Source: an uncultured Candidatus Saccharibacteria bacterium
Lineage (GTDB): Bacteria > Patescibacteriota > Minisyncoccia > Phycocordibacterales > CALRHW01
Direction: 5' to 3'
Assembly: GCA_964407105.1 (NCBI GenBank)
Contig: CAYOUG010000003.1
Location: forward strand, 8,393 to 72,392
DNA length: 64,000 bases
The position numbers and the translations under genes were made by a program. The notes beneath the pieces are model-generated. The model was not told the origin of the DNA. It did no database searches and worked only from the letters and a program-made list of their open reading frames with translations. Position 1 is the first letter of the stretch; every line of letters starts with the position of its first letter. This document shows, in pieces, positions 1,861 to 63,915 of the stretch.

Positions 1861-1888
1861 ATTGTCTAAAACTAAATTAATAAAAAAT

Positions 1889-1937
1889 GCGGCGAGATCT
1901 CACCCTGAGACCTCGCCGCGTTGTTTTTTGTGGTTTT
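1889..1937. terminator. Bidirectional intrinsic terminator (GCGGCGAG...CTCGCCGC stem).
   Basis: A roughly 10-bp G+C-rich stem. On the + strand it is followed by GTTGTTTTTTGTGGTTTT. On the - strand it is followed by ATTTTTTATTAATTT. Confidence 0.5.
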
Positions 1938-1939
1938 CA

Positions 1940-2215
1940 CCACCCGTGTCAACAACTACCTACCGTTTTTGCCGGCGTGTCGTCGTTGACAACTTTTCTT
2001 TGTAAGGTTTACCCCCTGCTGACTATCCGGCACAACGCCAGACGTGTGCACTCCCTGGAACACTGATCCGTTCAGTGTACTCAACACAGAACGATGGTTC
2101 CTTCGAGAAGTGCGCGATCGATCCCCGCCACGGCTTGGGTTGAGATGCATAAAGCTCCCACAAACCAATTTGCGACTGGATACTCACAGTCAGGACATTC
2201 CCAACTGGTTCCAAT
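1940..2215 (-). ncRNA. Candidate structured ncRNA of unknown class in a G+C-rich block with no credible ORF. Its 3' end would be the terminator at 1889..1937.
   Basis: The block 1940-2260 is much more G+C-rich than its flanks. Only short overlapping ORFs with TTG/GTG starts are present. A promoter-like TTGACC-N16-TAGCAT lies on the minus strand at 2221-2248. Internal helices include GACTG...CAGTC and GGAACCAGUUGGG/CAAAUUGGUUU. Confidence 0.3.
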
Positions 2216-2285
2216 ATGAAATGCTAACACCGTCACCAAAAACGGTCAATTAAAAACTGTTTATAAACTACTTAAATATCAGAAG

Positions 2286-3545
2286 TTATCTGCTACGAAC
2301 TGTTGTAGATTTTATGGGTGTAGGAGGTAAAAGTACATGTTCAGCTTTTACTGCAGTATCAAGACCGTTTCTAAAAAGCAAGAAGGCATCGCCATATGAT
2401 TGGGCATTAAATTTTGTATCACCATCAGCAACAAATTTTACAGCAGTATCAAGTGTAGTAGATGCAACAGTAATATCTTCAGCTTTTACTGATAGTGTGG
2501 TGGTGGCAAGAAGAGACGAAACCTTTTCGATTTGATCTGTAGCGTCTTTTCTTTTATCCTCAGCTGCTGTTTTTCTTGTGTTTGTATCAGTTAGGGTGGG
2601 TATTTTTGATTCTACTTCCTCTCGTACTTGTGCAGATACTTCAATATTTGCTTGAACAGTATTTACAATTTGTATAAGTTCATCTGTCGAATCGTTGTTG
2701 ATGATATTTTTTTCTGAATTATTTATATCATTTGATATTTCTGAAATTTCTTTTTTGTTTTCTATAACAGCACTATTTTTTGTTGACATCTCTTCTGATG
2801 TTTTTGTTGTTGTAGATAAAAAAGTCTCGTTGTCAGCAATATCAATATCGCTTGAATCAACCGGATCATTTGTCGTATTTATCTCTGTGTTTTTATTGGT
2901 TTCTTTTTGAGAGATATTATTTTTTAAGCTTTCGGCGTTGATAAGCTTTTCTTGTTCCTGATCTTGTACAATTTGTACAAGTGTTTTGCTGTGTTCTTTT
3001 AAAGATTTTTCAAAATTTTCACCTATATCAATAGCAGTTTTAAGATCATTTGCTGCTTCTACTGTAGCGATTTGTTCTTGAACTTTGTGAGCGTGTTTTT
3101 CAAAATTTTTCTTAATTATATCTTTTGATTCGGTATCAAGCTCTCCCATTACCGCAAGAGTTTTTGCTTCCTCAAGGCGATCACCTGCGCGCTTTATTTC
3201 AAAATATGCACGAGATTCTGCGCCAAAAGAAAACCAAGACTGAACTTCTTCGTTCACATTAACCTTTATAGTATAAAGTGCGTTGTTTGGAAGAGCACTT
3301 TGAGCTGCAAGAGATGTGGTTCCACCCACAACAAACACAATAGCAATAGAAAGTATCGCTAAACGTTGTGTGTGAATAAAATACGGAGACATTATGTGCA
3401 ACCAACCACGAGAAATGACTGGTTTTCTTTCTGGATTGTTATAAACATAAGCATCAACAACACTCCATAAGCTTTGCTTTTCGTCTTTCGACAAAACAAC
3501 TTCTTGTTTAAAGTCTTGTATTATTTTGTTAAATTTTTTCGTCAT
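2286..3545 (-). CDS. Membrane-anchored putative anti-sigma factor of the DUF5667-like family, with a coiled-coil, low-complexity extracytoplasmic region.
   Basis: The 419-aa ORF overlaps the 3' end of the upstream ECF sigma gene by 17 nt. It has one transmembrane segment (LAILSIAIVFVVGG) and then a segment YTIKVNVNEEVQSWFSFGAESRAYFEIKRAGDRLEEAK that resembles DUF5667 proteins found next to sigma factors. Confidence 0.55.
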   Translation of the reverse strand: MTKKFNKIIQDFKQEVVLSKDEKQSLWSVVDAYVYNNPERKPVISRGWLHIMSPYFIHTQRLAILSIAIVFVVGGTTSLAAQSALPNNALYTIKVNVNEEVQSWFSFGAESRAYFEIKRAGDRLEEAKTLAVMGELDTESKDIIKKNFEKHAHKVQEQIATVEAANDLKTAIDIGENFEKSLKEHSKTLVQIVQDQEQEKLINAESLKNNISQKETNKNTEINTTNDPVDSSDIDIADNETFLSTTTKTSEEMSTKNSAVIENKKEISEISNDINNSEKNIINNDSTDELIQIVNTVQANIEVSAQVREEVESKIPTLTDTNTRKTAAEDKRKDATDQIEKVSSLLATTTLSVKAEDITVASTTLDTAVKFVADGDTKFNAQSYGDAFLLFRNGLDTAVKAEHVLLPPTPIKSTTVRSR

Positions 3546-4047
3546 TCTTGTTGTATATTTTTTTTATTTTTTCCAAACCACGGTGAATTTTTACGGAAAC
3601 ATTGTTTGGTGATTCACCGAGTATCTCTGAAATTTCTTTTACACTTAATCCATCTACATATTGCATAAACAAAATATCACGATATGTTTCCGGAATATTG
3701 TTAAGTAATTTTAAAGCTTCGGCACCATCAATTTTGTTGTGTAAATCTTGCACTGTTTCCATTCCAATATCTGTATCAAAACCCTTTTCAAACATAATAT
3801 CGAGTGAAGTGGGTTTCTTTTTTCGATAATGATCTACTACAAGATTGTGTGCTGTGCGATATAAAAAAGCTCGCATATTGTTTATTTCTCCACCCCCCTT
3901 AATGTATTCCCATGTCTTGATGAATGTCTCTTGCACTATATCTGTAGATTCTTCTCGGTTGAGGGTTTTGAAATAGCAATACCTAAATAGGGCGTCGGTA
4001 TAGTCCTTGTATGAATTCAAAAATTGTGCTTCTTTATGTGAATCCAT
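3529..4047 (-). CDS. ECF-type RNA polymerase sigma factor of the sigma-70 family.
   Basis: A 172-aa ORF with region 2 (ESTDIVQETFIKTWEYI...YRTAHNLVVDHYRKKK) and region 4 (GLSVKEISEILGESPNNVSVKIHRGLEKIKK). Confidence 0.85.
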   Translation of the reverse strand: MDSHKEAQFLNSYKDYTDALFRYCYFKTLNREESTDIVQETFIKTWEYIKGGGEINNMRAFLYRTAHNLVVDHYRKKKPTSLDIMFEKGFDTDIGMETVQDLHNKIDGAEALKLLNNIPETYRDILFMQYVDGLSVKEISEILGESPNNVSVKIHRGLEKIKKIYNKNDEKI

Positions 4048-4137
4048 ATATATGACGCAGACAAGCTACGTTTATTACAAGCATTATACATCATTTTAGC
4101 CCTTTAGATAAGGTTAATTTTGTAGTACACTACTATC

Positions 4138-5148
4138 ATGCAAAACCTTGGTAATGAAATTTTAAAATATAGCCTCGCGATTATTCTAAGCATTATTGGT
4201 ACCTTATTTGTAATACAAGGAGGATTATCTCCAAAAGATCCTAGTTTTTCTTTAATCAAAATCGTATTTCAATCAAAAGAGATGTGTTTTTCTGTTATAG
4301 GAATATTTCTTTGTTTTTTACTTATAGGAATATTAATTACATACGCAAGCTCCATCAAAGCAAAACTTAATGAGATGCGCAGAATAAATCGCGTACTCAA
4401 AAAAAAGGATGAGATAAAAACAAGATTTTTGGCTTTTGCGGCACACAATCTAAGAACTCCAGCCACCGCTTTACGTTGGAGTTTGAATGATTTTTTAAAA
4501 AATGAATACGGTCATTTAACAAAAGAACAACAAACATCAATACAAGAGTTGTATTCTGTGTCTTTAAATATGCTCAATATTATCGAAGATTTTTTGGATA
4601 TTAGTAAACTTGAATTACAAAAATTTGAAATTGGATTAAAACCCGTTTCTTTAAAAGACTTTAAAAAAGAGATATTGGAAGTAATAGAAGAATTTAGACC
4701 GCTGGCAAAAGAACACGATGTTGCTATAAGTAACTTATTTGATATCAACGAAGATGCGCGTATCCACATTGACCTTTCTCAAATAGTGCGCGTTATAGAG
4801 AATTTAATTGAGAATGCAATCAACTACACCCTTTCAAAAGGCACTATTTTAATAGATATTTCAAACAATAAAGAAAATATATCGTTTAGCATAAAGGACA
4901 CTGGTATTGGTATTCCAAAAGCAGAGCATCCAATGATTTTTGGTGAATTTTTTAGATCATCAAACGCCAAAAGACACAAAAGTACAGGAAGTGGTATCGG
5001 TCTATACTTGGCTAGAAAAATTATTGAGGCACACGGTGGTAAAATTAAATTTATATCAGAAGAAAACGTTGGTTCAACATTTTCCTTTACTCTACCAATG
5101 ATAAAAGAAAGTGAGCGTGAGGTAACAAACGTATTTAAAAAACTATAA
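4138..5148 (+). CDS. Sensor histidine kinase with two N-terminal transmembrane segments, a HisKA domain and a HATPase_c domain.
   Basis: The H-box FLAFAAHNLRTPATAL, the N-box ENAINYT, and the G-boxes DTGIGIP and GSGIGLYLARKIIEAHGGKI are all present. It is transcribed divergently from the sigma operon. Confidence 0.85.
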   Translation: MQNLGNEILKYSLAIILSIIGTLFVIQGGLSPKDPSFSLIKIVFQSKEMCFSVIGIFLCFLLIGILITYASSIKAKLNEMRRINRVLKKKDEIKTRFLAFAAHNLRTPATALRWSLNDFLKNEYGHLTKEQQTSIQELYSVSLNMLNIIEDFLDISKLELQKFEIGLKPVSLKDFKKEILEVIEEFRPLAKEHDVAISNLFDINEDARIHIDLSQIVRVIENLIENAINYTLSKGTILIDISNNKENISFSIKDTGIGIPKAEHPMIFGEFFRSSNAKRHKSTGSGIGLYLARKIIEAHGGKIKFISEENVGSTFSFTLPMIKESEREVTNVFKKL

Positions 5149-5170
5149 GATATAGTTTTTTAAATTATAT

Positions 5171-5836
5171 CTATACTGTATTTTTAGCAAAACGACGAGC
5201 AACCAAAACTGCTAACACCAGTGTGATTGGTGTTAAAACCATAAAAAGCTTCGCAAGTGCCGTCATTCCTATTGTAATAACAATAAGATGAGTAAGAAGA
5301 CAGCAAAAAACAATACTACATCCACCACCAATACATTTTATTTTTGAAGCTGAATCATTTATCCGAAAACCCTGAAAAATCATATAAAAACCAGATAACG
5401 TTCCAGAAACAATAATCATATATATAGATGCAATATCCATCACCATCATTGGTTCGTAAGAATTTAAAAGCATAAAAGCAATCATTGCCCAACCAACCAA
5501 AAGTGCAACATAAAAAAGTGCTTTTCGCGTACCGTCATTTAAAATAGCACTAAGTGGAAATTTGAACACAAAAGCAGAACCGGTGACCGCTCCAAAAGAC
5601 CCCAAGTACATAAGTAATGGTAAATCCCAATACATGCTTGCGCCACCAAGAAGATGGAAAATAGACATACCCCCCAAAAATCCTAAAAATGCATTCATGA
5701 GTTCACTTCGGTCGTGTCGAAATGGACCGGTTAAAAGTACAACAGCCATAATAAAAAACACTATGCCAGAAAGCCACAACCAAAATATTGGCTCTGGTAA
5801 ATTTGTCATCTGCACCAAATCATTTCCGTAATTCAT
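5171..5836 (-). CDS. Polytopic membrane protein, function unknown.
   Basis: The 221-aa ORF is hydrophobic throughout, with roughly 6-7 transmembrane segments. Confidence 0.5.
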   Translation of the reverse strand: MNYGNDLVQMTNLPEPIFWLWLSGIVFFIMAVVLLTGPFRHDRSELMNAFLGFLGGMSIFHLLGGASMYWDLPLLMYLGSFGAVTGSAFVFKFPLSAILNDGTRKALFYVALLVGWAMIAFMLLNSYEPMMVMDIASIYMIIVSGTLSGFYMIFQGFRINDSASKIKCIGGGCSIVFCCLLTHLIVITIGMTALAKLFMVLTPITLVLAVLVARRFAKNTV

Positions 5837-5893
5837 AAGAATAAATTTATAACTATAATGATTTATTATAACAAAGAAATTTAATATAAAAAA

Positions 5894-6460
5894 CTATCTT
5901 GTCTCATTATTTTTAAACAATTCGCGTCGATCTTCTTCTTCAAACTTATCGTAATGCTTTTTTTCAATATTCTTATTTAAAAAAACATCCTCTTGAGATT
6001 TTTCATGATTTTCAACCAAATCACCGTTTCCATTAAACCACTCACGAATTGCACTTATACTAAAATAAAATGATAATAAAAACATGACCGACAACACAAG
6101 ATTAATAGCAAAAAATATAAGACCATAGTCGGTAAAAACATCCACAGACTGAAAACTAGAAATTAATAAACCAAACATAGATACAATTGCATCAAGAACA
6201 ATTGTCCATTTGTATTTTTTGTTTGTAAACGCAGCAAGAAACACGAGGAGTACCACACTAAAAATAGATAGCGGTCGTAAAATTGATGAAATTTCGTTTC
6301 TAAAAAATGGCAACGTAACCACAATAAGTAAAGAAACAATAAGAAAAGTTCTTGAAACATTTTCACTTAAATAACCAATAACTCCGCGTATCTTTTTTAC
6401 TCGGGCAAGAGCTCGAAGTGGATAAAAACTAGGTGGATCATAGTCATCCCTTTCTGACAT
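5894..6460 (-). CDS. Membrane protein, function unknown.
   Basis: A 188-aa ORF with 3-4 transmembrane segments and a charged C-terminal tail. Confidence 0.5.
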   Translation of the reverse strand: MSERDDYDPPSFYPLRALARVKKIRGVIGYLSENVSRTFLIVSLLIVVTLPFFRNEISSILRPLSIFSVVLLVFLAAFTNKKYKWTIVLDAIVSMFGLLISSFQSVDVFTDYGLIFFAINLVLSVMFLLSFYFSISAIREWFNGNGDLVENHEKSQEDVFLNKNIEKKHYDKFEEEDRRELFKNNETR

Positions 6461-6496
6461 AATCTCAGTATATACCTAAAAAATAATTTGTGTACA

Positions 6497-6534
6497 AAAT
6501 AAAAACGCCCCATCACTGAGGCGTTTTTATTTTA
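6497..6534. terminator. Intrinsic terminator (AACGCC...GGCGTT) flanked by T runs on both strands.
   Basis: The hairpin lies between the stop of 6548..7234 (-) and the start of 5894..6460 (-). On the - strand it is followed by TTTTTATTT. Confidence 0.5.
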
Positions 6535-6547
6535 CTTAGAGTAGCGA

Positions 6548-7234
6548 TTATTTATTAAGAGCTGCTCGAGTAATATTTCCTACAAAACCAGTGTTCCAGA
6601 TACCGTGAGCTGCCTGATATGCTTGCACTGCTGCAAACGTAATAGGACCAAAGTATCCAGTGTTTGTTGGGAATGTAAAATATCCTTCTGCACGAAGTCG
6701 CGCCTGAAGTTCTTTTACATCATCACTCTTCAAACCTTTCCAAAGGTTACTTACAAATTTATGTGTTTCAACACCAAGTACAAGTCCTGAAACATTTTTT
6801 GCTTTTCCACCTTGTTTAGAACCACCGTTTGAACCGTTGTTTCCATTATCAACAACTTCTTCATTCACATCAGTTGATACTGTTGTGTTTGTGTCAGTTA
6901 TTGAAACACCCTCATCACCACCATTTGAAACAATGACAGTTGTGTTTGTTTTTGGAATAGAATCTACAACACCCCCAGAAACAGAAGTATCTTCTGAATT
7001 TGTATTTATAACAACACCACCAATAGGAGCGTCGACTACAATTACATCTTCAGAGACAGAAACGTCTCCTGGATTTGTGTTTGTAATAATAGAAACACCA
7101 ACAGTAACATCAGCCACAGTTGTTGGTTGTGTATCTTCTGTTGTTTGAGCGAACGCTGGAACTGCAAAGAGTCCAAACGCAAGCACAGTAATAATTGCTT
7201 TCATATATTTTATATATTGGCCTTGTAGAGCCAT
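6548..7234 (-). CDS. Secreted Thr/Val-rich repeat protein with a C-terminal peptidoglycan-binding (PG_binding_1-like) domain.
   Basis: There is a signal peptide (MKAIITVLAFGLFAVPAFAQT), a low-complexity T/V/S/D-rich middle section, and a C-terminal ...LQARLRAEGYF...GYFGPITFAAVQAYQAAHGI segment typical of PG-binding domains. Confidence 0.6.
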   Translation of the reverse strand: MALQGQYIKYMKAIITVLAFGLFAVPAFAQTTEDTQPTTVADVTVGVSIITNTNPGDVSVSEDVIVVDAPIGGVVINTNSEDTSVSGGVVDSIPKTNTTVIVSNGGDEGVSITDTNTTVSTDVNEEVVDNGNNGSNGGSKQGGKAKNVSGLVLGVETHKFVSNLWKGLKSDDVKELQARLRAEGYFTFPTNTGYFGPITFAAVQAYQAAHGIWNTGFVGNITRAALNK

Positions 7235-7331
7235 ATTTACTATTAAACTACAAAGCTGGGAGATTTAATAACCTCCAAACATTGTTCGAGCACCATAACA
7301 TATTTTCATTAAAAATGCAAGGGGTTTGTTG

Positions 7332-7404
7332 TGGACCCTATCGGATTCGAACCGATGACCTCCTCATTGCAAATGAGGCGCTCTACCAACTAAGCTAAGG
7401 GCCC
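7332..7404 (-). tRNA. tRNA-Ala (anticodon UGC). CCA is not encoded.
   Basis: The reverse-complement folds as a cloverleaf: GGGCCCT-TA-GCTT-AGTTGGTA-GAGC-G-CCTCA-TTTGCAA-TGAGG-AGGTC-ATCGG-TTCGAAT-CCGAT-AGGGTCC-A. The G3:U70 alanine identity pair is present. Confidence 0.9.
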
Positions 7405-18543: not shown

Positions 18544-18644
18544 AAAAACATTAACGTGTCATTGCTCGAATAAACAAAATAAAAACAGCCCTGATAAATG
18601 AAAGCGTTTTGCTAACTCATTTACGAGCTGTTTTTATTTTATTT

Positions 18645-20284: not shown

Positions 20285-20322
20285 ACCCGAGGGGTGCTAA
20301 AAGCGCCCCCCGGGTATTGTTT
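20285..20322. terminator. G+C-rich hairpin terminator (ACCCGAGGGGTGC...GCGCCCCCCGGGT) shared by two convergent genes.
   Basis: An imperfect stem of about 11 bp. It is followed by TATTGTTT on the + strand and sits 20 nt beyond the stop of the minus-strand islet ORF. Confidence 0.45.
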
Positions 20323-20340
20323 ACAAAATCACCCACGATC

Positions 20341-20898
20341 TCAAGCCACTGTCACCGCCACCGTCTTTGCACTCGACCGTTTGGTCAAGTTTAAAGAAAT
20401 TGGATCTGGTTGCCACTGATCCGGCAAGTTTCTTGCTTTTCTCGCCAGAGCGTCATCCTTACCAAGAAGGTGTCGAATAACAGCGACCATTGGTGGATCA
20501 CCGGTCTTCCAACTATTAACATCGCCGTTGACAACGATGTCGACGCGCTGATTCTTGTACATCTCCCCAGCTTCGGTTGGTGCACCGTTCGCGCTCTGGC
20601 GAAAAGCGAATCGGCCACACACCGATACCCAAGCTTCTTCCTGAGCAATTCGACGGTCCCGAGGTTTGTCCACCAAACCAAACACCGACGAATTCAGATT
20701 TGCGGGCCTAACCTCCACTCCGTGAAAAACAGTAGGACGAGGCACCTCAACTTCCTCCACTGGGAGTTCGGCGTTCTTTTTGCCAGACTTCTTTCTGTGG
20801 TACTCCGCTCGTGCACGAGCCCCCATTACTGCTCTCTCGTACTCGGTCTGCGCAAACTGTTGTGCAAAAGACAAACCGGATAAATTACGACTGGTCAC
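20341..20898 (-). CDS. Orphan hypothetical protein on a G+C-rich islet, with a GTG start. An alternative ATG start lies at 20826 (MGARARAEY).
   Basis: A 185-aa open frame spans a roughly 0.65-kb block that is far more G+C-rich than its flanks. I see no recognisable domain. A candidate SD (GGTGGTG) lies 6 nt before the GTG. A promoter-like TTGCGT-N17-TACATT lies upstream. Confidence 0.5.
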   Translation of the reverse strand: MTSRNLSGLSFAQQFAQTEYERAVMGARARAEYHRKKSGKKNAELPVEEVEVPRPTVFHGVEVRPANLNSSVFGLVDKPRDRRIAQEEAWVSVCGRFAFRQSANGAPTEAGEMYKNQRVDIVVNGDVNSWKTGDPPMVAVIRHLLGKDDALARKARNLPDQWQPDPISLNLTKRSSAKTVAVTVA

Positions 20899-21113
20899 TA
20901 TACACCACCCCTTGAAAAACCACCCGTTTACTGTCGGGAATCAGTCACCCTCATTGGGTAAAAAGGTGTTTCTACCAAAGAAACCTTCCACAAAAAATGT
21001 ACCATAAAAAAGAGATACACGCAACATTTTTACACAACAACCCACTAATCTTCATTTATTGAATAAAAAATGGTAGTATAAAATCTCCTTGGTCTTTATA
21101 GAGACTGATAAAA

Positions 21114-28979: not shown

Positions 28980-29100
28980 AAAATGTACTAAAAATATTTT
29001 TGCTTTTTCTACTGCTTTGTGGTCAAATGGAAGCAAATAGTTCTTCGTGTATCTTGTGATCCACGAACATCTCCACCAACGCCCACAAAAGGAGGACAGT

Positions 29101-29457
29101 ATGCGAAGCGTTGAAGCAGGGGAAATCGAAACCATTAGGGGGCAAATTATTTTCTGTTATCACACCCAAAGAGAACGTGGTGTTCGTGTAAATATGCCGA
29201 GTATTATTCGGCAAACACTTAGAGAACACGGTCTTAGTGATGATCAAGACCTATATCACCAGCTTTGTGCTGCGATGGGAAAACTAAGTCACCTGAAGAC
29301 TGGGAGTGGTAAAACAAAAAAAATCCCCAACGGAACTAGGTCAATAGTTTCGATATCGAGTCGAGGTATTGTCATAACCCCCCACCCCGTGACACCCTCC
29401 ACAAAAGACGATTTTCTCTTCCCAGAAATGGGAAGGCCCCAAACTGGACACCGCTGA
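29101..29457 (+). CDS. Orphan hypothetical protein on a G+C-rich islet. The six-frame ORF begins at 29047.
   Basis: A strong SD, AAAGGAGGA, lies 8 nt upstream of the ATG at 29101. The ORF is 118 aa, has no recognisable domain, and its stop codon sits in the loop of a strong terminator. Confidence 0.5.
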   Translation: MRSVEAGEIETIRGQIIFCYHTQRERGVRVNMPSIIRQTLREHGLSDDQDLYHQLCAAMGKLSHLKTGSGKTKKIPNGTRSIVSISSRGIVITPHPVTPSTKDDFLFPEMGRPQTGHR

Positions 29458-29486
29458 AAAAGCGGGTCCGGTTTTTTCTTTTTTTA
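29446..29486 (+). terminator. Intrinsic terminator (GGACACCGC-TGAAAAA-GCGGGTCC followed by GGTTTTTTCTTTTTTT).
   Basis: An 8/9-bp G+C stem followed by a long T tract. Confidence 0.65.
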
Positions 29487-29536
29487 GATAAAAAAATACC
29501 CCCCAGAGCAAGCGCCTAAGCACATACTTGGGGGGC
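29487..29536 (-). terminator. Minus-strand intrinsic terminator (CCCCCC...GGGGGG stem followed by TATTTTTTTATCT). It sits about 240 nt downstream of the pyrD stop.
   Basis: A C6/G6 stem with a roughly 24-nt loop and a T-rich tail on the minus strand. The 240 nt between it and the pyrD stop are G+C-rich and contain only a Cys-rich 87-aa ORF of doubtful validity. Confidence 0.35.
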
Positions 29537-29777
29537 ACGGCGAACCGAGAAAGGTGGTCATCCCATCACAAACCGGAGACGCGCAGCAAGACACGTAACA
29601 AGAAGCAACAGACACCTTCGACGGCACACAACGATTGCCTAAACTCATTTTGTGTGTTTTCGCCAATGAATTTAGTTCAGCCTTCCAATTCTTCCATTCC
29701 AAGAGCCTTGCAGCCATGATCGACTGATGAATCATCTGCACCAACATACTAGCGCAAAGATGTTATGGAAGTCAACA

Positions 29778-30860: not shown

Positions 30861-30867
30861 AATTTGT

Positions 30868-35969: not shown

Positions 35970-36058
35970 AACTTGACTTTGTGTATAAAATATGCTAGTA
36001 TTACAAGCAGATTGGGAGTAACGTATTCCCTTCGCACACTGTCAGTAGAGGAGCACAC

Positions 36059-36262
36059 ATGATACAGGTAAAGCCCCTTGGGTGGATCGCCAAAATTGGT
36101 GATCTTCTCATGCTTCCGGTGATGTGGCTACTCACCGGTATCGGAGAGTCTCCACAAAAAACTCACCGATGGAACAACACGAAGCTGTCTTACGGAGACG
36201 TCGTATTGATGCGACACGACCAAATGGTAGAGTGTGAAGGAATCAAAGGAGAAAAAAGCTGA
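36059..36262 (+). CDS. Small ORF (67 aa) of unknown function on a G+C-rich islet. Coding status is uncertain because a 147-aa ORF runs antisense to it.
   Basis: An SD, AGGAG, lies 5 nt upstream of the ATG. A promoter-like TTGACT-N17-TAGTAT lies at about 35975-36003. Confidence 0.3.
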   Translation: MIQVKPLGWIAKIGDLLMLPVMWLLTGIGESPQKTHRWNNTKLSYGDVVLMRHDQMVECEGIKGEKS

Positions 36263-36571
36263 TGGTTTGGCTTTCTCCCGATTTTCCACATTCCGTTGTT
36301 GGGTTGGCGTCACTATGTGGTGATTAAACCACCATCGTGGAGTGGAGAGTGGCACATCGGTTGGATCAGCGAGGACGTCATTGGCGTAAGTCAAATCAAA
36401 CTTCGTGGTCCAGTTCCGCGTCCTTGTTGGTCCAACAAATGTGAAGTTTTTTGGCATCATCGCTGGTAGCACCACGCAAACACTCCTGAACAAAGAAGGT
36501 TTTGGAAAACTTGGCGATGGAGGGCCATTTACAAGAGTGCCGCTACTTTGAGGGGGGATGCAAAAAAACAA
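36128..36571 (-). CDS. Alternative 147-aa ORF on the same G+C-rich islet. It has a TTG start and no clear SD.
   Basis: This is the longest open frame across the islet and is followed on the minus strand by the 18-bp hairpin terminator. It overlaps the plus-strand small ORF by about 135 nt, so at most one of the two is likely real. Confidence 0.3.
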   Translation of the reverse strand: MFFCIPPQSSGTLVNGPPSPSFPKPSLFRSVCVVLPAMMPKNFTFVGPTRTRNWTTKFDLTYANDVLADPTDVPLSTPRWWFNHHIVTPTQQRNVENREKAKPSAFFSFDSFTLYHLVVSHQYDVSVRQLRVVPSVSFLWRLSDTGE

Positions 36572-36619
36572 ACCAACCCGCGGCAGTCTTTTTCATTCAT
36601 TCACAATTGGAGACAAAAC

Positions 36620-36814
36620 ATGCCTAGCACTTCTCGCACAGTGATCATTGTGAGAGGAATCGGGAGTATGATGTTCCTTCTCGGTTTCTTTGTTCTTCTG
36701 TCCGTCTTCTTGTTTCCACACCGCCATGTCTATGCAATAGGAGGTTTACTTTTGTTGTTTGGTGGTATGTTAGCATCAATGGATGCTCCACCACAAACAA
36801 GTTGCCGATGTTAG
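36620..36814 (+). CDS. Small hydrophobic protein of 64 aa with two predicted transmembrane segments.
   Basis: An SD, TGGAGA, lies 6 nt upstream of the ATG. The product is MPSTSRTVIIVRGIGSMMFLLGFFVLLSVFLFPHRHVYAIGGLLLLFGGMLASM..., and it is followed by a terminator. Confidence 0.35.
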   Translation: MPSTSRTVIIVRGIGSMMFLLGFFVLLSVFLFPHRHVYAIGGLLLLFGGMLASMDAPPQTSCRC

Positions 36815-36828
36815 ACAAAAAGCTAACC

Positions 36829-36877
36829 CGACCACCAACCCGCGCAGTCTTTACTGACTGAGGCGGGTTTTTTTAAT
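36829..36877 (+). terminator. Intrinsic terminator (CCCGC-G-CAGTC...GACTG-AG-GCGGG followed by TTTTTTT).
   Basis: A two-part G+C stem followed by seven T residues, directly after the 36620..36814 ORF. Confidence 0.5.
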
Positions 36878-36891
36878 ACTCTAAAGATAAA

Positions 36892-37003
36892 CAAAACAAA
36901 AACAATACTTTTTCCGGGTACGGAATTTTTGAAGCTTAAAAATTCCTGAAACTCTCGCGCCGTCGCGCTCGAGACCTCCTCCAAAAGTATTGTTTTTGTT
37001 TTG
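36892..37003. repeat. Perfect 21-bp inverted repeat (CAAAACAAAAACAATACTTTT / AAAAGTATTGTTTTTGTTTTG) enclosing a 70-nt G+C-rich spacer that has its own internal hairpins.
   Basis: The arms are at 36892-36912 and 36983-37003. The spacer contains GGAATTTTT-GAAGCTT-AAAAATTCC. The right arm begins 13 nt beyond the lysS stop codon. Confidence 0.6.
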
Positions 37004-44200: not shown

Positions 44201-44215
44201 AAAAAGATTTTTATT

Positions 44216-48044: not shown

Positions 48045-48372
48045 ACCAAAGAAAAACCCCCACCTTTTCGTCCATACTACTCGGACAAGAAAGGAGGGGG
48101 CTGGGCAAGGTCTTTTCGATGTGTGTGTTCTCTCTCAATCAACATGGACCCGACATAGATGGAGAGGCACCAACGGTCTGCGCCGTCGATGACTTACGAC
48201 CAAGAAATGTTTCAATAAGGTGGCACAACCATCAGAAAGATTCCCCAAACTCGGAGGCACACCAGAATCAACGAGATCTTGGATAACACCAACGCTCAGA
48301 GGGACCCCGACAAAGAAGTTCCGAGCATTGTCACACCAAAAAGAACTGCTTAATATCAAGATATCACCCCCA
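48045..48372 (-). ncRNA. Candidate structured ncRNA of unknown class on the minus strand, ending in an intrinsic terminator at 48045..48100.
   Basis: The block between the second mreB paralogue and the delta-prime-like gene is G+C-rich and has no credible ORF; the 96-aa ORF at 48135..48425 overlaps the mreB paralogue. At the 3' end on the minus strand, the hairpin CCCCCUCCUUU...AAAGGUGGGGG is followed by UUUUUCUUU. Confidence 0.3.
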
Positions 48373-49434: not shown

Positions 49435-49468
49435 GAAAAGAAAAAGCCGCACCTTTTTAAAGCGCGGC
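49435..49468 (-). terminator. Intrinsic terminator for the G+C-rich islet gene (GCCGCGC...GTGCGGC followed by TTTTTCTTTTC on the minus strand).
   Basis: A 6/7-bp G+C stem with a T-rich tail on the minus strand, 30 nt after the stop at 49498. Confidence 0.5.
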
Positions 49469-49497
49469 AAAATGAGTACGGAAACCAGTGTCAGTAG

Positions 49498-50022
49498 TCA
49501 GAGTAAACGACGGTTTGAGAAGTCTGTTCCTTCGTAACGCTCGAGAGAAACTTCTTCGGCATCATGAAGCCTTCTCCTGGACACATCGATATATCTCAAG
49601 GGCCCATCGACCAAATAAGTCCACATGGCAAGATAGCCACATCTCTCAATCACGAAGGTGCTCAGAGGAGAGCCATCAGTGGGAAACCAAACATTGCCTT
49701 GAGGCAAACTGTTTTGGATTTGTCGACAAAGAACTTTTCCAGAGAATGGTGCGACAATCCCATGCCTGTTGCCATCAAGCACATACTGACCGTGAATATC
49801 AGTCCAAACCTCTTTCACAAAACAACCACCAATTTCCCAGAAGAAACTCCTCGCCTTACGATCAGACTTAACAGTAAGATCTATGAAATCGATTCGTTTT
49901 CCAAGAACAATCTCGATAACTCGACGAGACGCCTCAATAGCAGCAGTTGCAGACGACACAATTTCAACTTTCGGCATTTCTATCTCCTGTCTCAGGAAAT
50001 CATGAGGAACAATTTCACTCAT
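49498..50022 (-). CDS. Orphan hypothetical protein on a G+C-rich islet. The start was chosen at MSEIVPHD; the six-frame ORF extends to 50079 and is partly G+C-poor.
   Basis: It is G+C-rich, starting at about 174 aa and open for 193 codons. A consensus promoter (TTGACA-N17-TATTAT) places the transcription start near 50044, and a GGTGG lies just upstream of the ATG at 50022. I see no recognisable domain. Confidence 0.5.
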   Translation of the reverse strand: MSEIVPHDFLRQEIEMPKVEIVSSATAAIEASRRVIEIVLGKRIDFIDLTVKSDRKARSFFWEIGGCFVKEVWTDIHGQYVLDGNRHGIVAPFSGKVLCRQIQNSLPQGNVWFPTDGSPLSTFVIERCGYLAMWTYLVDGPLRYIDVSRRRLHDAEEVSLERYEGTDFSNRRLL

Positions 50023-50050
50023 GGCCACCGTCACAGTGGCATTAAAAATA

Positions 50051-50079
50051 ATAATACAGTATAAAATTATATTTGTCAA
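50051..50079 (-). promoter_or_regulatory. Near-consensus sigma-70 promoter on the minus strand, TTGACA-N17-TATTAT with TG adjacent.
   Basis: The minus strand reads TTGACAaatataattttatacTGTATTAT. It drives the islet ORF 49498..50022. Confidence 0.5.
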
Positions 50080-50087
50080 AATTAGAA

Positions 50088-50196
50088 AATCTCAAAACCA
50101 TGTTGAGAAAAGCATCGCGCAGGGGCGACGGCCCCGAGCGTAGCAGCAATCGCAACAGCGATTGACGCGTGGTTTTCGAAACACGGTTTTGAGATT
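50088..50196. repeat. A 15-bp imperfect inverted repeat (AATCTCAAAACCATG / CACGGTTTTGAGATT, one mismatch) bracketing a 79-nt G+C-rich segment between two divergent promoters.
   Basis: The arms are at 50088-50102 and 50182-50196. The interior contains GGGGC-GACG-GCCCC and ATCGC-AACA-GCGAT hairpins. It could be a MITE-like element or an operator for the adjacent XRE-HTH protein. Confidence 0.45.
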
Positions 50197-50203
50197 GACA
50201 ACA

Positions 50204-50231
50204 TTGAACAACATAGCACATATGCTATACT
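50204..50231 (+). promoter_or_regulatory. Promoter TTGAAC-N16-TATACT placed 6 nt upstream of the HTH-murA ATG, implying a leaderless mRNA.
   Basis: The plus strand reads TTGAAC-aacatagcacatatgc-TATACT-ttcctc-ATG. An additional TTGACA lies at 50195-50200. Confidence 0.4.
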
Positions 50232-50237
50232 TTCCTC

Positions 50238-55765: not shown

Positions 55766-56662
55766 TTAATCAAAAATACTTACAAGATATTTGTCGATAT
55801 CTCGCTGATCCATATCATAGAAAAACATATCTTTTTTATGCAAATAACGTGCTAAATCTTCGCCAACAAAACGCCAATGCCAAGGTTCAAATTGATAATA
55901 TGCATTATTTTTTGGATATGAAAGTACAAAACCATATTTATAAGCATTTTTAGTCAGCCACTTATACTCAGCCGTGACATCAAAACCAACAAAGGGCGTA
56001 CCTGTGGCAGAAACAAAATCAACGGTTGTACCGAGCTGATGTTCAGAATATCCCTGATCTGCTGAAAATTGATTTGCTGTACCAACACCATAAATAACTT
56101 TGTAATTTGTTTTCAAATTCACCTGATCACCAAAAGAACGATACGCCGAAGCAATTTTAAGATTAACATTGTCTTCGATTGAAGTTTCCAACAAATCTTC
56201 TAGATGTGGCAATACTTCTGTGTGAATTTGTTCTGGCTTTTTTTTATCATACAAATATTTCTCATCTATATCTTCTGGATTTTTAGGAGCGTAATGTTCA
56301 TTTAGAAAAAAGACTTTAGAATATTTCTTCAAAAGTTCTGGATCTAATTTACTTAGTTTTTCAAGTGTACCAACAGTTTTTGAGATGTCTTCAATTTCTT
56401 GACCAAAATCGCCGATTTTTGCTTTTTCGGCTGCAAGCGCATCAGAAAGTTCTGAATTGTCATGTTGTGCTTGAGAAAGTAAACCTTCAAGTTCTATGGT
56501 TTTTATTTGAGCCATTTCGGTTGTGCTTGCAAGTTTTGTTTGTGTTTCTTTCAAAAGAGACACATTTTCTATAAATTTCCAACCACCAAAAGCACCCAGA
56601 ACAACAAACAAAATAATAACAATGTATGGTATATAGTTTTTTGTATTATTTATATTTTGCAT
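55766..56662 (-). CDS. D-alanyl-D-alanine carboxypeptidase of the VanY/M15B family, membrane-anchored.
   Basis: An N-terminal transmembrane segment and coiled coil are followed by the M15 zinc motifs SEHQLGTTVD and EPWHW. Confidence 0.75.
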   Translation of the reverse strand: MQNINNTKNYIPYIVIILFVVLGAFGGWKFIENVSLLKETQTKLASTTEMAQIKTIELEGLLSQAQHDNSELSDALAAEKAKIGDFGQEIEDISKTVGTLEKLSKLDPELLKKYSKVFFLNEHYAPKNPEDIDEKYLYDKKKPEQIHTEVLPHLEDLLETSIEDNVNLKIASAYRSFGDQVNLKTNYKVIYGVGTANQFSADQGYSEHQLGTTVDFVSATGTPFVGFDVTAEYKWLTKNAYKYGFVLSYPKNNAYYQFEPWHWRFVGEDLARYLHKKDMFFYDMDQRDIDKYLVSIFD

Positions 56663-58848: not shown

Positions 58849-59034
58849 TTTTATTTTCTACTAAATTTATTTAGTTCCTAATGTTTAAATTATACAACAA
58901 AAAATATAATGAGTAATACACACATGCGACAAATTTTAAAAATATCTCGTGTGCATTATTAATACATTGGTGCTATTGTAAAAAAAGAATTCGTCTTGAA
59001 TCGAATCAAAAATCTTCAGCACAAGGAGCTCTCC

Positions 59035-60432
59035 ATGGAAACTAAATGGTCACCCGAAATTATTCAGGGTGGTATGGGAATGTTTGTCTCTGGCCCACGT
59101 TTGGCCAGAGCCGTATCGATGTGTGGTCAACAAGGCACGTTGTCTGGTGTTTGTTTAGAAAGGGCGATGACTCACATTCTTCAGTTGGGAGATCAGGGTG
59201 GACACTTAAGGCGTGCTCTTTCACATTTTCCATTCCCCGATGATGCACAGAAGGTCTTAAAACTTTTCTTTGTGCAGGGTGGAATTCCAAAAGGCAAGGC
59301 GTTTAGAGATGCGCCGATTTTCAATGTAAATCCATCCAAACTTCTAATCACCCTCACGGTTTGTGCCAATTTTGCGTTTGTTTGGCTTGCAAAAGAAGGT
59401 CATAGTGGTCGCATAAGCATCAATTATCTGGAAAAGATAGCGATGCCACATGTGTACAGTATCACGGGCGCAATCCTTGCCGGCGTAGACTTCATCACAA
59501 TGGGAGCGGGAATCCCCCTTCAAATTCCATCAGTAATTGATGCAATCGTAGAAGGAAAAACAGCAACTTATCGCATACCCGTTGAGGGCACCGATCTCAC
59601 GAGTCATACGATGAGTTTCAATCCGGAGCAATTTTTTGGGGGCAAATTACCCTCAATGAAAAAACCCGGATTCATTCCCATAATTGCGTCAAACCTTCTG
59701 GCTCGTGTTTTTGTAGACAAACTGCCTGCAAACCAACAGGTTTCTGGGTTCGTGGTGGAAGAGCCAACCGCAGGCGGACACAATGCTCCACCCAGAAGAC
59801 CACCGGATTATGGACCAAAAGACATGGTGGATTATTCCAAACTCGTTGAGCTTGGAATACCGTTTTGGATAGGTGGTTCTTACGCTTCTCCAGAAAAACT
59901 TGCCTTCGCAAAATCTGTGGGCGCACAAGGTGTGCAGGTTGGTTCTATTTTTGCACTCTGCGAAGAGTCAGAACTAGATCCAAACATCAAAACAGAAATT
60001 AGAAGACAGGGGTTTTTGGGTGAGTTGCAAATCAAAACCGACACGAGAATATCCCCAACAGGATTTCCGTTTAAGGTGGTGGTGTTGCCTGGAACAATTT
60101 CTGAAAGAAGTGTTCTAGACGCCAGACCACGTGTCTGTGACAAGGGCGCGCTCGTTGTTCTCTATGAAAGGCCAGACGGATCGGTGGGATATAAATGTCC
60201 TAGTGAGCCGACAGAAAAATATCTGGCTAAGGGTGGAAAGGTTGAGGACACAGAACACAGGGGGTGCATTTGCAACGGACTGCTTTGCGCTGTTGGATTA
60301 AACTACAGTCGCGAACCAGCCGTTGTTACACTTGGAGATGATGTGGGTTTTCTTCATCACTTGATGCGAAACGAGGGTGACTCATACACCGCAGCCAAGG
60401 CGGTAGCCTACATGTTGGGTCCTCAAAAATAG
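59035..60432 (+). CDS. Nitronate monooxygenase / 2-nitropropane dioxygenase (NMO) family flavoenzyme on a G+C-rich islet. The start was chosen at METKW with an SD; the six-frame ORF begins at 58996.
   Basis: The NMO N-terminal motif IIQGGMGMFVSGPRLARAVSMCGQQGTLSG is present, along with ...VVEEPTAGGHN. An SD, AAGGAG, lies 6 nt upstream. G+C content is visibly elevated, and a perfect 10-bp terminator follows. Confidence 0.75.
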   Translation: METKWSPEIIQGGMGMFVSGPRLARAVSMCGQQGTLSGVCLERAMTHILQLGDQGGHLRRALSHFPFPDDAQKVLKLFFVQGGIPKGKAFRDAPIFNVNPSKLLITLTVCANFAFVWLAKEGHSGRISINYLEKIAMPHVYSITGAILAGVDFITMGAGIPLQIPSVIDAIVEGKTATYRIPVEGTDLTSHTMSFNPEQFFGGKLPSMKKPGFIPIIASNLLARVFVDKLPANQQVSGFVVEEPTAGGHNAPPRRPPDYGPKDMVDYSKLVELGIPFWIGGSYASPEKLAFAKSVGAQGVQVGSIFALCEESELDPNIKTEIRRQGFLGELQIKTDTRISPTGFPFKVVVLPGTISERSVLDARPRVCDKGALVVLYERPDGSVGYKCPSEPTEKYLAKGGKVEDTEHRGCICNGLLCAVGLNYSREPAVVTLGDDVGFLHHLMRNEGDSYTAAKAVAYMLGPQK

Positions 60433-60452
60433 GAGAAAAAACTTTGGTCTAT

Positions 60453-60484
60453 CCCCGCGACATGCTGTCGCGGGGATTTTTTTC
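60453..60484 (+). terminator. Intrinsic terminator with a perfect 10-bp stem (CCCCGCGACA-TGC-TGTCGCGGGG followed by ATTTTTTT).
   Basis: Seen directly, 20 nt after the NMO stop. Confidence 0.7.
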
Positions 60485-60539
60485 TACCCCGTTTTCTTGT
60501 CTGAACAAATTTAGAACTCTTAATTTTAATAAAATAAGG

Positions 60540-60957: not shown

Positions 60958-61239
60958 TTAATCTATATCTTTTACAGAACCCTTTTTCATTAACTTTTTC
61001 TTTTTACGTATTGGAGGAAAAAAGAATCGAAAGACAAAATTATTTTCGAGTCGTTCTTTTAAATCCTCAATAAATTCTTCTGATTCCTTAAACTCACTTT
61101 TCAAAGCTTCGGATAATTTATATAAATTTTTTCCAGCTTTTATTAAATAAAACAAAAGAAAAGAAATTAGTGTTGTTAACACTACGGTTGCAATACAAGC
61201 AATAAAGAAAAAAATGTCTGCTTTTACTAGTGTTTCCAC
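60958..61239 (-). CDS. Small membrane protein, function unknown.
   Basis: A 93-aa ORF with one or two transmembrane segments. Confidence 0.4.
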   Translation of the reverse strand: METLVKADIFFFIACIATVVLTTLISFLLFYLIKAGKNLYKLSEALKSEFKESEEFIEDLKERLENNFVFRFFFPPIRKKKKLMKKGSVKDID

Positions 61240-62906: not shown

Positions 62907-62933
62907 TTAATTTTTACGCATCATTTTTACGCA
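62907..62933. repeat. Tandem direct repeat of 12 bp (ATTTTTACGCAT, two copies) in the msrB upstream region.
   Basis: The sequence reads aATTTTTACGCATcATTTTTACGCATgg. It could be a regulator-binding site. Confidence 0.3.
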
Positions 62934-63123
62934 TGGAAATAAAATGCCAGACATAAATATATACTTGCTTTTCGTGTTTACGTATTCAAACAAAAATCTA
63001 TTTTTTGCTTTTGATTGGGTGGCGAGGGTGGTTTAGTTTTTTGAAAAAAGAAAGAGCCCTGAGCGAAATAAGTTTCGCAAAGGGCCCTGATGCTGGACTT
63101 TCCAGTCTCGCTTAGGTCTCGCT

Positions 63124-63738
63124 TTAGGCGGCGACCAGTGCACAGCCGAACTTCGGCGCGCTCAGCATCTCGCAGAGCTCCGGCGGAAATTCATACGACC
63201 CGCTGCTCGTCATGCCGATCGAGGTCGAAACACCATCAATGGCCATCGGACCTCTGCCACGAAGCATCTCGCCCCGCATACCATTGTTGCTGTCGCGAGT
63301 CTGCGGATTGTCGTAGAAGCTGAGCACGAACTCCACAATAACCGAGAAGAAGAACTTGTACTCCTCATTCGTGAGCTCGACAATCGTGTTGCCACGCTTC
63401 ACCGTGATCTGAAAGAGGCGCTGGACCTCGCTATCGTCCTTGGTCAGCGGTAAGCTGTCAAGTTGGTTGATCGGAAATCCAAACACCAACTCATAGTCGA
63501 AACTGGTGCCGGCGACCTTGACATGGCCCTTGTAGCGGACACCGTCTTGAACCTGCTCGACGTACTGTTCAATCGAGATTTTTCTCGTTTTGATCTTGGG
63601 CTTCTTCTTGGTCTTCTTCTTGGGCTTCTCGACGGTCTCCATGTCACGGTTGTAATTCGCCAACATGTCATCCGTCGACTGCCCCCGATCATCGGGGGTA
63701 CAATCGCACATCACTCGACCACAGATTGGGCAAGGCAT
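63124..63738 (-). CDS. Orphan hypothetical protein with an N-terminal zinc-ribbon-like CxxC...CxC motif, on a G+C-rich islet next to tRNA-Asn. The start was chosen at MPCPICG; the six-frame ORF extends to a GTG at 63792.
   Basis: An SD, AAGGAGA, lies 6 nt upstream of the ATG at 63738. The product is MPCPICGRVMCDC followed by a Lys-rich linker (KKKTKKKPKIKTRK) and a roughly 150-aa domain I do not recognise. A sampled 60 nt is about 68% G+C. Confidence 0.55.
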   Translation of the reverse strand: MPCPICGRVMCDCTPDDRGQSTDDMLANYNRDMETVEKPKKKTKKKPKIKTRKISIEQYVEQVQDGVRYKGHVKVAGTSFDYELVFGFPINQLDSLPLTKDDSEVQRLFQITVKRGNTIVELTNEEYKFFFSVIVEFVLSFYDNPQTRDSNNGMRGEMLRGRGPMAIDGVSTSIGMTSSGSYEFPPELCEMLSAPKFGCALVAA

Positions 63739-63811
63739 TTTCGTCTCCTTCTGAAAGCCGTTTATTCGTCTTTGAGGGCAGTAACACACCACCCTTAACG
63801 ATCCACTTTAA

Positions 63812-63840
63812 ATTATACACCTAAATGATATAATTGTCAA
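63812..63840 (-). promoter_or_regulatory. Perfect-consensus sigma-70 promoter TTGACA-N17-TATAAT on the minus strand.
   Basis: The minus strand reads TTGACAattatatcatttaggtgTATAAT. It sits about 65 nt upstream of the islet ORF start. Confidence 0.6.
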
Positions 63841-63869
63841 GTATTACCTCGAACCTCAAAAACATCAAG

Positions 63870-63903
63870 CAATAAAAGACAAAACCCCACAAATTGTGAG
63901 GTT
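63870..63903 (-). terminator. Intrinsic terminator just downstream of tRNA-Asn (AAACCUCACA-AUU-UGUGGGGUUU followed by UGUCUUUUAUU).
   Basis: A 10-bp stem with one G:U pair and a T-rich tail on the minus strand. Confidence 0.45.
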
Positions 63904-63915
63904 TCGTCACTAGGG

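Follow-up and report, generated by a model that had tools for sequence, protein, structure and literature searches.

How did short blocks of high G+C content come to stand between the housekeeping genes of a bacterial genome that is assumed to be streamlined? The window, by which we mean the whole 64 kb stretch of DNA analysed (contig CAYOUG010000003.1, positions 8,393 to 72,392), holds eight such blocks, here called islets I1 to I8 (Table 1). We hold it somewhat more probable than its opposite that the islets are moron-like cassettes, which entered from a pool of G+C-richer genes within the candidate phyla radiation (CPR) and are disappearing through decay or deletion. The islets are set apart from the backbone by composition, codon usage and mode of translation initiation, and whether a given locus holds an islet differs from relative to relative and even between two strains of the same species.

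The G+C-rich blocks described in the original prediction are real, and each sits between backbone genes. The whole window has 36.9% G+C, while the eight blocks reach 44.4–51.9% over their full length against 35.8% in the remaining window, with a peak 60-nt G+C of 0.58–0.72 per block. With a flagging criterion of at least 47% G+C in a 330-nt counting window, ten segments were flagged, some blocks being split into several; beyond the eight blocks, flagged segments (two of the ten) occur only inside two native MreB-family genes, at 42.3–42.7 kb and 48.8–49.4 kb. The same criterion finds about 3.6 G+C islets per 64 kb in the loci of relatives, where they are located elsewhere. The backbone includes the genes for UvrA, UvrB, the dcw cluster (MraZ, MraW and a penicillin-binding protein), two MreB paralogues, LysRS, starch synthase with GH57, DHODH and MsrA/MsrB. 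The MreB of the window is 93–95% identical to those of metagenome-assembled genomes (MAGs) labelled Parcubacteria or Paceibacterota, which indicates that the host is a CPR member near Zambryski/Taylorbacteria. Relative to the 60 native coding sequences, whose G+C content is 0.358 ± 0.032 and whose G+C at third codon positions (GC3) is 0.258 ± 0.043, the open reading frames (ORFs) of the islets are outliers in G+C (z of +2.7 to +5.7), GC3 (+2.8 to +11.1) and codon usage (−2.9 to −10.2), as the proposed composition check had anticipated. Untranslated islet DNA is likewise rich in G+C (44–52%, against 29.3% in native intergenic DNA). With unit sizes of 0.3–1.5 kb, one gene each and eight units per 64 kb, the islets make up about 9% of the window sequence (6 kb of 64 kb) and about half of its intergenic space.

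The contrast in Shine–Dalgarno (SD) sites that had been claimed between islet and native genes also holds. Pairing with the anti-SD sequence at −6 kcal/mol or better was found for only 5 of 60 native genes (median −0.4) and for all seven islet ORF starts scored, which were drawn from I2, I3, I4, I6, I7 and I8, the ORF-less parts being excluded; I2 reaches the threshold only with its alternative GTG start, its ATG start having −4.3 kcal/mol. A strong case is I3a, in which the SD sequence AAAGGAGG lies 5 nt upstream of the ORF and pairs at −11.6 kcal/mol. Among native genes, 9 of 60 have a −10 hexamer (matching TATAAT at five or six of six positions) that ends exactly 6 nt 5' of the start codon, a leaderless signature set against a background of roughly one gene at each position. 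Numerous native mRNAs probably lack a leader, which would explain why native genes have no SD sites, and islet genes might have kept theirs because they are translated from a real 5' untranslated region (UTR). Placement of the −10 box in this manner can be seen in 9–14 native genes, for example at 50238, 27402-28472 (minus strand), 55766-56662 (minus) and 60958-61239 (minus).

The claim that the islets bear TTGACA-N17-TATAAT promoters holds in full for one of them only. I8 has the only perfect copy in the window (63812-63840, minus strand) and I6 an 11/12 match, with one mismatch; I3a and I4 have weaker boxes and terminators, and all these promoters and terminators are predicted from sequence. 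Comparable sigma-70-like boxes also serve native genes and tRNA-Ala, and the total of promoter-like boxes in the window is not above that in shuffled sequence. G+C-rich intrinsic terminators, which had been counted as foreign signals, are found behind native genes and tRNAs as well, for instance at 1831-1862 and, after tRNA-Asn, at 63878-63908. Therefore, neither type of element can be taken as a sign of foreign origin.

Empty sites were found for two islets. The gap between murA and mreB measures 840 bp in the window and 130–210 bp in the four closest relatives (L002-L005), and the extra DNA consists of I6 and a hairpin element, Hb, which is described below. Similarly, the gap between lysS and mraZ is 1209 bp in the window and 330 bp in L038, the extra DNA being I4. 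Between strains, the reverse situation was encountered. A contig of strain L177 (sample DRR783867), which matches 11.5 kb of the window at 98.1% identity, carries an 870-bp cassette of 46% G+C with a promoter, a 229-aa phosphoribosyltransferase-like ORF and a terminator, located between a DAO-family oxidoreductase gene (44216-45577) and hisS, at a place where the window has none. In this cassette, the architecture of the islets appears to be caught as a within-species polymorphism. On either side of it stands a 10-bp direct repeat, CTTTTTTTGA, which occurs once in the window; since this repeat is the T-tail of two terminators, it suggests that terminator tails may act as microhomology for insertion or deletion. 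Among the close relatives, L004 holds a further G+C-rich islet (1253-1984; 56% versus 39%), with a gene that resembles cytidylate kinase by eye; if so, the islets of the clade would not be restricted to orphan genes.

Decay can be followed in I4. Its first ORF is interrupted by an in-frame TGA and one frameshift, while the repaired frame aligns end to end with an intact 184-aa protein (L045:3633-4187; 38% identity, E = 2e-38), which argues that I4 is a decaying pseudogene. The family comprises 46 representatives of about 165 aa in the HMMER search described below, and a G+C-rich patch takes in part of the intact homologue, which occupies another locus in a Paceibacteria-like MAG of 39% G+C. 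Recoding of the TGA was considered and rejected, as the frameshift is also present and Parcubacteria use the standard genetic code. The short second ORF of the islet, I4b, would encode a hydrophobic product with the look of a membrane protein. What looks like a bidirectional terminator separates I4 from the mraZ promoter region: a perfect inverted repeat of 24 bp (35894-35968), with 27 nt in its loop and A and T runs at its sides. A similar inverted repeat was noticed at 18572-18644.

ORFs longer than expected by chance (P ≤ 0.001) were found only in I2, I3a, I6 and I8. An exhaustive HMMER search against 1.84 billion representative proteins returned only self-matches for I2, I3a and I6 and none for I4b, so that these four rank as true ORFans, and Pfam, PHROGs and NCBIfam gave nothing for I2, I3a, I3b, I4a, I4b, I6 or I8. 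The lack of homologues of I2, I3a and I6 is typical of flexible-genome ORFans. A single-sequence AlphaFold2 model of the I6 protein was uninformative (pLDDT 32), and a Rfam match to Mu-gpT-DE inside its ORF (49975-49997, 23 nt, 24 bits against a gathering score of 49) was treated as chance. The proposed rule of one orphan ORF per islet accordingly applies to I2, I3a, I6 and I4b, while I4, I7 and I8 have homologues; in ORF content, I1 and I5 have no significant ORF, I3b is borderline and the main ORF of I4 is disrupted. The islet proteins were correctly said to be dissimilar to each other, and a comparison of the islets, flanks included, found no sequence in common.

I8 is separated from tRNA-Asn(GTT) by 65 nt that are 83% identical to L048 1998-2060, where a large serine recombinase gene has its 3' end beside the tRNA; about twenty other loci match the tRNA only. 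The L048 ORF (422-2092, 556 aa) has Resolvase, Recombinase and Zn_ribbon_recom domains and stands in a G+C-elevated block adjoining tRNA-Asn. The tRNA-Asn(GTT) next to I8 is a probable integration target. The family of I8 is rare, with 62 matches among 5.8 billion clusters; those with named sources are all CPR, and the predicted fold has no relative in the PDB. In homologues from genomes of 46% G+C, a GC3 of 0.67–0.71, a TTGACA promoter and a strong SD site are found. The C-terminus of the family is nearly invariant, ...SIGMTSSGSYDFPPELCEMLSAPKFGCAL(V)A (window protein and homologues P0002-P0062), and only in the window protein is the N-terminus extended, by 50 aa that include a CxxC...CxC motif and a run rich in lysine. 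The tRNA-Asn of the window is intron-free, and that of L048 contains a group I intron (2111-2404, minus strand; Rfam RF00028, 86.5 bits); split matches to tRNA-Asn were also seen in L043, L020, L019 and L042, with the break at window position 63953/63954, indicating that some Parcubacteria carry a group I intron in this tRNA. A 79-aa Cys/His-rich ORF (2323-2562, minus strand), which overlaps the intron in L048, resembles an HNH-type homing endonuclease by eye.

I7 encodes an NMO/'2-nitropropane dioxygenase'/FabK-like FMN oxidoreductase, as it matches Pfam NMO PF03060 (E = 6e-9, 36.2 bits versus a cut-off of 28) and the FabK structure 4IQL (E = 2e-6) and falls below the FabK equivalog cut-off (24.7 versus 453 bits). 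It has more than 8000 homologues, the best with 74% identity, and every named one is from Parcubacteria and annotated NMO/FabK-like. In L089, MsrA is 89% identical to that of the window and the I7 homologue, itself a G+C islet (55% versus 39%), only 51%, yet other Paceibacterota reach 74%, which would imply that at least one of the two copies was exchanged within the phylum. Across metagenome loci centred on MsrA, synteny is kept only over msrAB. The 'E. coli-like' donors of the original prediction thus find no echo, since the source-named homologues of I7 and I8 are all from CPR/Parcubacteria and the L045 homologue of I4 is from a Paceibacteria-like MAG.

Table 1. Coordinates of the islets, their parts and the three-helix element (window positions unless a locus is named)
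Feature	Coordinates	Strand	Remarks
Islet I1	1880..2260	-	non-coding, 50% G+C; promoter-like TTGACC-N17-TAGCAT 2249-2221; terminator 1919-1889, 14-bp stem
Islet I2	20285..20960	-	52% G+C, GC3 0.51 (z = 5.8); ORF length P = 0.001
I2 bidirectional terminator hairpin	20286-20314		common to native pterin dehydratase gene
I2 ORF	20341-20826	-	161 aa as called in Logan; alternative GTG at 20898 gives 185 aa
Islet I3a	29040..29480	+	ORFan ORF 29101-29457 (118 aa), ORF P < 0.001; terminator 29445-29477
Islet I3b	29484..29777	-	46% G+C, between DHODH stop codon and terminator 29541-29500
Islet I4	35973..36875	+	promoter TTGACT-N17-TAGTAT 35973-36001; terminator 36839-36875
I4 first ORF	36059-36551	+	SD-led; in-frame TGA at 36260, one frameshift near 36410-36420
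I4b ORFan	36620-36814	+	SD-led; 64 aa, hydrophobic
Ha	36890..37003	+	directly right of I4, abuts lysS stop codon; covariance model R1 95 bits
Empty site	44197-44206	.	L177 carries 870-bp cassette here (L177 4964-5837); none in window
Islet I5	48045..48372	-	48% G+C spacer, mreB stop codon to terminator (48095-48050) ahead of holB
Islet I6	49435..50080	-	ORFan ORF 49498-50022 (174 aa)
I6 promoter	50079-50051	-	TTGACA-N17-TATTAT; terminator 49468-49446, 10-bp stem
Hb	50085..50198	-	directly upstream of I6 promoter; R1 85 bits; 3' arm overlaps alternative -35 box
Islet I7	58990..60490	+	SD-led monocistronic gene 59035-60432 (465 aa); terminator 60451-60477, 12-bp stem
Islet I8	63040..63847	-	ORF 63124-63738 (204 aa, GC3 0.73); terminator 63089-63044
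I8 promoter	63840-63812	-	perfect TTGACA-N17-TATAAT; 70-nt 5' UTR with SD AAGGAG
I8-tRNA segment	63848..63912	-	65 nt; homologous to L048 large serine recombinase gene 3' end and tRNA flank
tRNA-Asn(GTT)	63913..63989	-	tRNA prediction, Rfam
Element copies elsewhere	L002 5239-5348; L069 11014-11125; L093 64-171; L032 13199-13280, 16974-17112
Element copies elsewhere	L009 20886-21005, 11014-11131; L042 7134-7240; L019 4805-4927; L054 11037-11146
Element copies elsewhere	L017 9439-9559; L030 13175-13256

That the islets are artefacts, in which G+C-rich fragments of other organisms were joined into an AT-rich contig during assembly or binning, is extremely unlikely. The window is of metagenomic origin, and chimerism, which had been named as a reason to discard the islets, was not seen. 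Five contigs of Logan, for which another assembler was used, agree with the window at 100% identity over both edges of I1, I2, I3, I5, I6 and I7 and over the left edge of I8 (for instance, _7415 over window 1-7360 with I1 and _170688 over 27801-30892 with I3), and I5 with its flanks recurs in a second sample, DRR783867, at 98% identity. Furthermore, islets share terminators or promoter regions with their native neighbours, as at 20286-20314, and the homologues of I4, I7 and I8 are on long CPR contigs. On the other side, all exact matches but one come from the same run, SRR12487045, the Logan contig at I8 stops just before tRNA-Asn, and I4 is uncovered. A different matter is whether the coding islets, above all I7 and I8, might be long-resident native genes whose G+C-rich codons, strong promoter, SD site and terminator are kept by selection, for example for a high or specially regulated expression of leadered mRNAs, rather than through recent transfer; we regard this as unlikely. 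The I7 family spans Paceibacterota, Taylor-, Zambryski-, Jorgensen-, Nomura- and Falkowbacteria, its genes in L169, L171, L173 and L089 are 4–16 G+C points over their genomes, monocistronic, SD-led and followed by a terminator, and the conserved GC3, promoter and SD site of the I8 homologues speak in the same direction. Yet high G+C extends to the non-coding parts of the islets, I2, I3a and I6 are without any relatives, I4 is broken, and both I4 and I6 are absent from the same loci in relatives; moreover, the 51% identity between the I7 copies of the window and L089 is far under that of the flanking genes, and the I8 family is very sparse. The claim of acquired single-gene cassettes is supported by the compositional outliers, the empty sites of I4 and I6, the decay of I4, the L177 cassette and the tRNA-side remnant of I8, while the label of orphan fails for I7, a common gene of Parcubacteria. 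Nothing supports the second proposal of the original prediction, a single new family of small mobile cargo elements, since shared ends, inverted repeats, target duplications and a recombinase were all lacking in the islets. They do not have the make-up of insertion sequences, transposons or miniature inverted-repeat transposable elements (MITEs), as the inverted repeats near them are terminators or the hairpin elements Ha and Hb, and their housekeeping flanks, the absence of PHROG matches and the viral-contig scans with I8 and I2, both of which gave no match, do not place them in a prophage. Association with a tRNA, integrase or direct repeat is limited to I8 (tRNA-Asn and the 65-nt remnant) and the L177 cassette (10-bp repeat).

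In AT-rich genomes, non-coding RNA (ncRNA) genes classically stand out as intergenic regions of high G+C, so that I1, I3b and I5 could instead encode structured or regulatory RNAs, to which we assign a small chance. All three are closed by a terminator that lies on the same strand as the gene upstream. I1, the best ncRNA candidate, has no significant ORF (P = 0.19) but a promoter-like box, a strong terminator and a strand-specific fold, with z = −3.4 on the minus strand (terminator excluded; 0 of 200 shuffles as good) against −0.65 on the plus strand. I3b has a box TTGACT-N18-TAGTAT at 29775-29746, a possible Cys-rich ORF of 83–87 aa that is borderline (P = 0.012) and a fold of z = −2.4, and the values of about −2.4 for I3b and I5 include their terminators. 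I5, also without a significant ORF (P = 0.10), is kept in strain L177, with 6.4% mismatches versus 1.1% in mreB. Its differences are concentrated in the flanks, terminator included (15/88 and 6/69), and none falls in the 152-nt core (0/152, 48151-48302). By our estimate, this invariance is not significant against the genome-wide divergence of 1.9%, and the core has no fold signal (z = +0.35). Such divergence and the lack of a fold signal in the core make I5 look more like DNA that evolves fast or decays than like a conserved RNA. The mreB–holB spacers of all four closest relatives are similar in length to I5 and G+C-rich in L003 and L004, but unalignable. The search of 2.2 Mb of related loci found no homologue of I1 or of the other two. 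Rfam 15 at gathering score yielded only three tRNAs in the whole window, and even at E ≤ 5 no family matched over I1, I2, I3, I5, I7 or I8, which answers the suspicion that the islets might be known housekeeping RNA loci. Still less probable, and in our view very unlikely, is that the islets are self-expressed, CPR-specific cassettes inserted by a recombinase encoded elsewhere at a structure-defined, attC-like insertion or recombination site, a part for which the three-helix element represented by Ha and Hb would be the candidate. Both window copies touch islets (right of I4 and left of I6), L002 holds the element alone at the intergenic site of I6, in opposite orientation and with no cassette, and its structure is kept while the sequence of the outer stem varies, as in attC sites. 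A copy, however, stands beside only two of the eight islets, no integrase is nearby, the cassettes have their own promoters, unlike those of integrons, and the L177 cassette is without the element. The link between element and islets is unproven because the copies in other loci do not adjoin the G+C islets flagged there (our coordinate comparison), and two adjacencies are weak evidence because islets fill about half of the intergenic space.

The element deserves attention in its own right, as it is the only item in the window that may be new in kind. Ha and Hb are the two longest inverted repeats of the window, and the 60-nt sample of 68% G+C cited in the original prediction is located at about 50110, inside Hb. 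Each is built of three helices: the outer stem is long, one inner hairpin is AT-rich and comes after a GUACGG motif, and the other is G+C-rich and has CGUC as its loop. The covariance model R1 finds 12 distinct copies (about 110–140 nt) at E ≤ 0.001, two in the window and the rest in other Parcubacteria loci (L002, L069, L093, L032 with two copies, L009, L042, L019, L054 and L017), together with two weaker matches (E ~0.03), the second copy in L009 and that in L030. Its surroundings differ from locus to locus; in L069, L054 and L009 it lies directly 3' of mreB (in L009 as one weaker match, E ~0.03). I5, which follows mreB in the window, was considered as a degenerate copy and rejected, since the covariance model finds nothing there. 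In the alignment, which was fitted to R1 and thereby favours structure somewhat, 89.7% of cells pair versus 62% when shuffled, compensatory changes occur in 19 of 22 pairs, and the covariation score is 0.67 against 0.21 for shuffled and 0.09–0.27 for slid controls. The element is absent from Rfam, and no target-site duplication was seen. One exact-pattern match to its core in a viral contig, a G+C-rich phage, was rejected by the covariance model and is attributed to chance. Being short, multicopy and intergenic, with terminal inverted repeats and a conserved structure, it has the properties of a structured intergenic repeat, and it could stand for small structured RNAs of a new class, present in several copies in Parcubacteria.

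Several points weigh against regarding the islets as acquired cassettes. No donor was identified for any of them. In every genome examined, the homologues of I7 and I8 exceed their genome in G+C and have an SD site, a pattern that fits gene-intrinsic selection as well as repeated transfer, and as they are G+C-rich, SD-led and terminator-bounded throughout, part of the signal may be family-intrinsic. Empty sites were found for I4 and I6, with none obtained for I1, I2, I3, I7 and I8, and at the position of I5 all four closest relatives have a spacer of about the same length. The two disruptions of I4 are known from a single assembly, as Logan has no coverage there. No integrase, transposase or common end was detected in the window by Pfam (about 30 ORFs), PHROGs and NCBIfam or by the comparison of islets, and the empty viral-contig scans with I8 and I2 likewise offer no carrier.

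If the islets are cassettes nonetheless, most of them would be autonomous units composed of a promoter, a 5' UTR with an SD site, one ORF and a terminator, which would enter intergenic gaps from a G+C-richer pool circulating within the CPR and would disappear again through point decay and deletion. Entry might occur by site-specific integration at a tRNA, as for I8, or by DNA uptake followed by illegitimate or microhomology-assisted recombination at terminator/promoter junctions, as for I4, I6 and the L177 cassette. The ORF-less I1, I3b and I5 might be late decay products or small RNA genes. In this way, gain, decay and loss in a CPR genome, of a kind that is very small and assumed to be streamlined, would be visible within one window and between two strains. 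In addition, a leadered SD gene of higher G+C among SD-less native genes flags flexible genes cleanly and could help to annotate the CPR mobilome.

Two further observations concern the gene next to I6. MurA (50238-51749) has a Cro/C1-type HTH domain at its N-terminus, and the palindrome TATAGCATAT(G/A)(T/C)GCTAT(A) at about 50205-50232, which is also found upstream of murA in L002-L005, overlaps the murA −10 region and may be a putative autoregulatory operator.

Compared with known systems, I1, I3b and I5 recall the ncRNA genes reportedly found in G+C-rich intergenic regions of AT-rich genomes by Klein, Misulovin and Eddy in 2002 and through the GC-IGR approach of the Breaker laboratory, as they are G+C-rich, ORF-poor and terminator-bounded and the strand-specific fold of I1 beats shuffled sequence; they differ in having no homologues, covariation or Rfam family. 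Small intergenic palindromic repeats and MITE-like elements, such as ERIC, Correia, BOX and RUP, are matched by Ha and Hb in size, copy number, intergenic position, long terminal inverted repeats and folding as RNA, and also in that they may contribute promoter or terminator function to neighbours. In Ha and Hb, however, the interior is conserved and the terminal stem covaries freely, target-site duplications were not seen, and Rfam has no entry. With integron cassettes, the islets have in common that they are single-gene units and that two of them adjoin an imperfect palindrome whose structure is more conserved than its stem sequence. They differ in that there is no IntI (no integrase among the about 30 window ORFs by Pfam), no array and no recognised R'/R'' core site, that they have their own promoters and that most stand without the element. 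Elements that target tRNAs by means of large serine recombinases resemble I8 in its position 3' of tRNA-Asn and in the 65 nt shared with the end of the L048 element nearest to the recombinase, whereas the window has no recombinase gene or second att repeat and at most 0.9 kb of such an element would be left.

The closest likeness in architecture is with the morons of lambdoid phages, reportedly described by Hendrix and by Juhala et al. in 2000 as promoter–gene–terminator units of atypical composition between two genes. Islets with a single ORF have their own predicted sigma-70 promoter and intrinsic terminator, differ in composition from their neighbours, lie exactly between two conserved genes and occur in some close relatives but not in others (I4, I6 and the L177 cassette). 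Unlike morons, they stand in a chromosomal housekeeping backbone with no phage genes near and no PHROG matches, and they are G+C-richer than the host. Most mobile DNA is richer in A+T than its host; a flexible pool of higher G+C runs counter to this and hints that CPR lineages which differ in G+C content exchange genes.

In terms of process, the islets compare best with the flexible genome of Patescibacteria, in which abundant islands and single-gene transfers, mostly within the phylum, have been described (PMC12455944). Horizontal gene transfer in genomes of the type that the original prediction called minimal had already been reported at scale (PMC12455944). Current concepts are left unchanged. 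The islets agree with that description in atypical G+C and codon usage, patchy distribution, the remains of a recombinase next to a tRNA (I8), the presence of a pseudogene (I4) and donors that would mostly belong to the phylum. They differ from it in that the units of the window are very small, with eight in 64 kb, and in the switch of initiation mode, SD-led in the islets versus leaderless or SD-less in the backbone. What the window presents is ordinary gene gain and loss, a process already reported for the lineage, in an unusually clean form.

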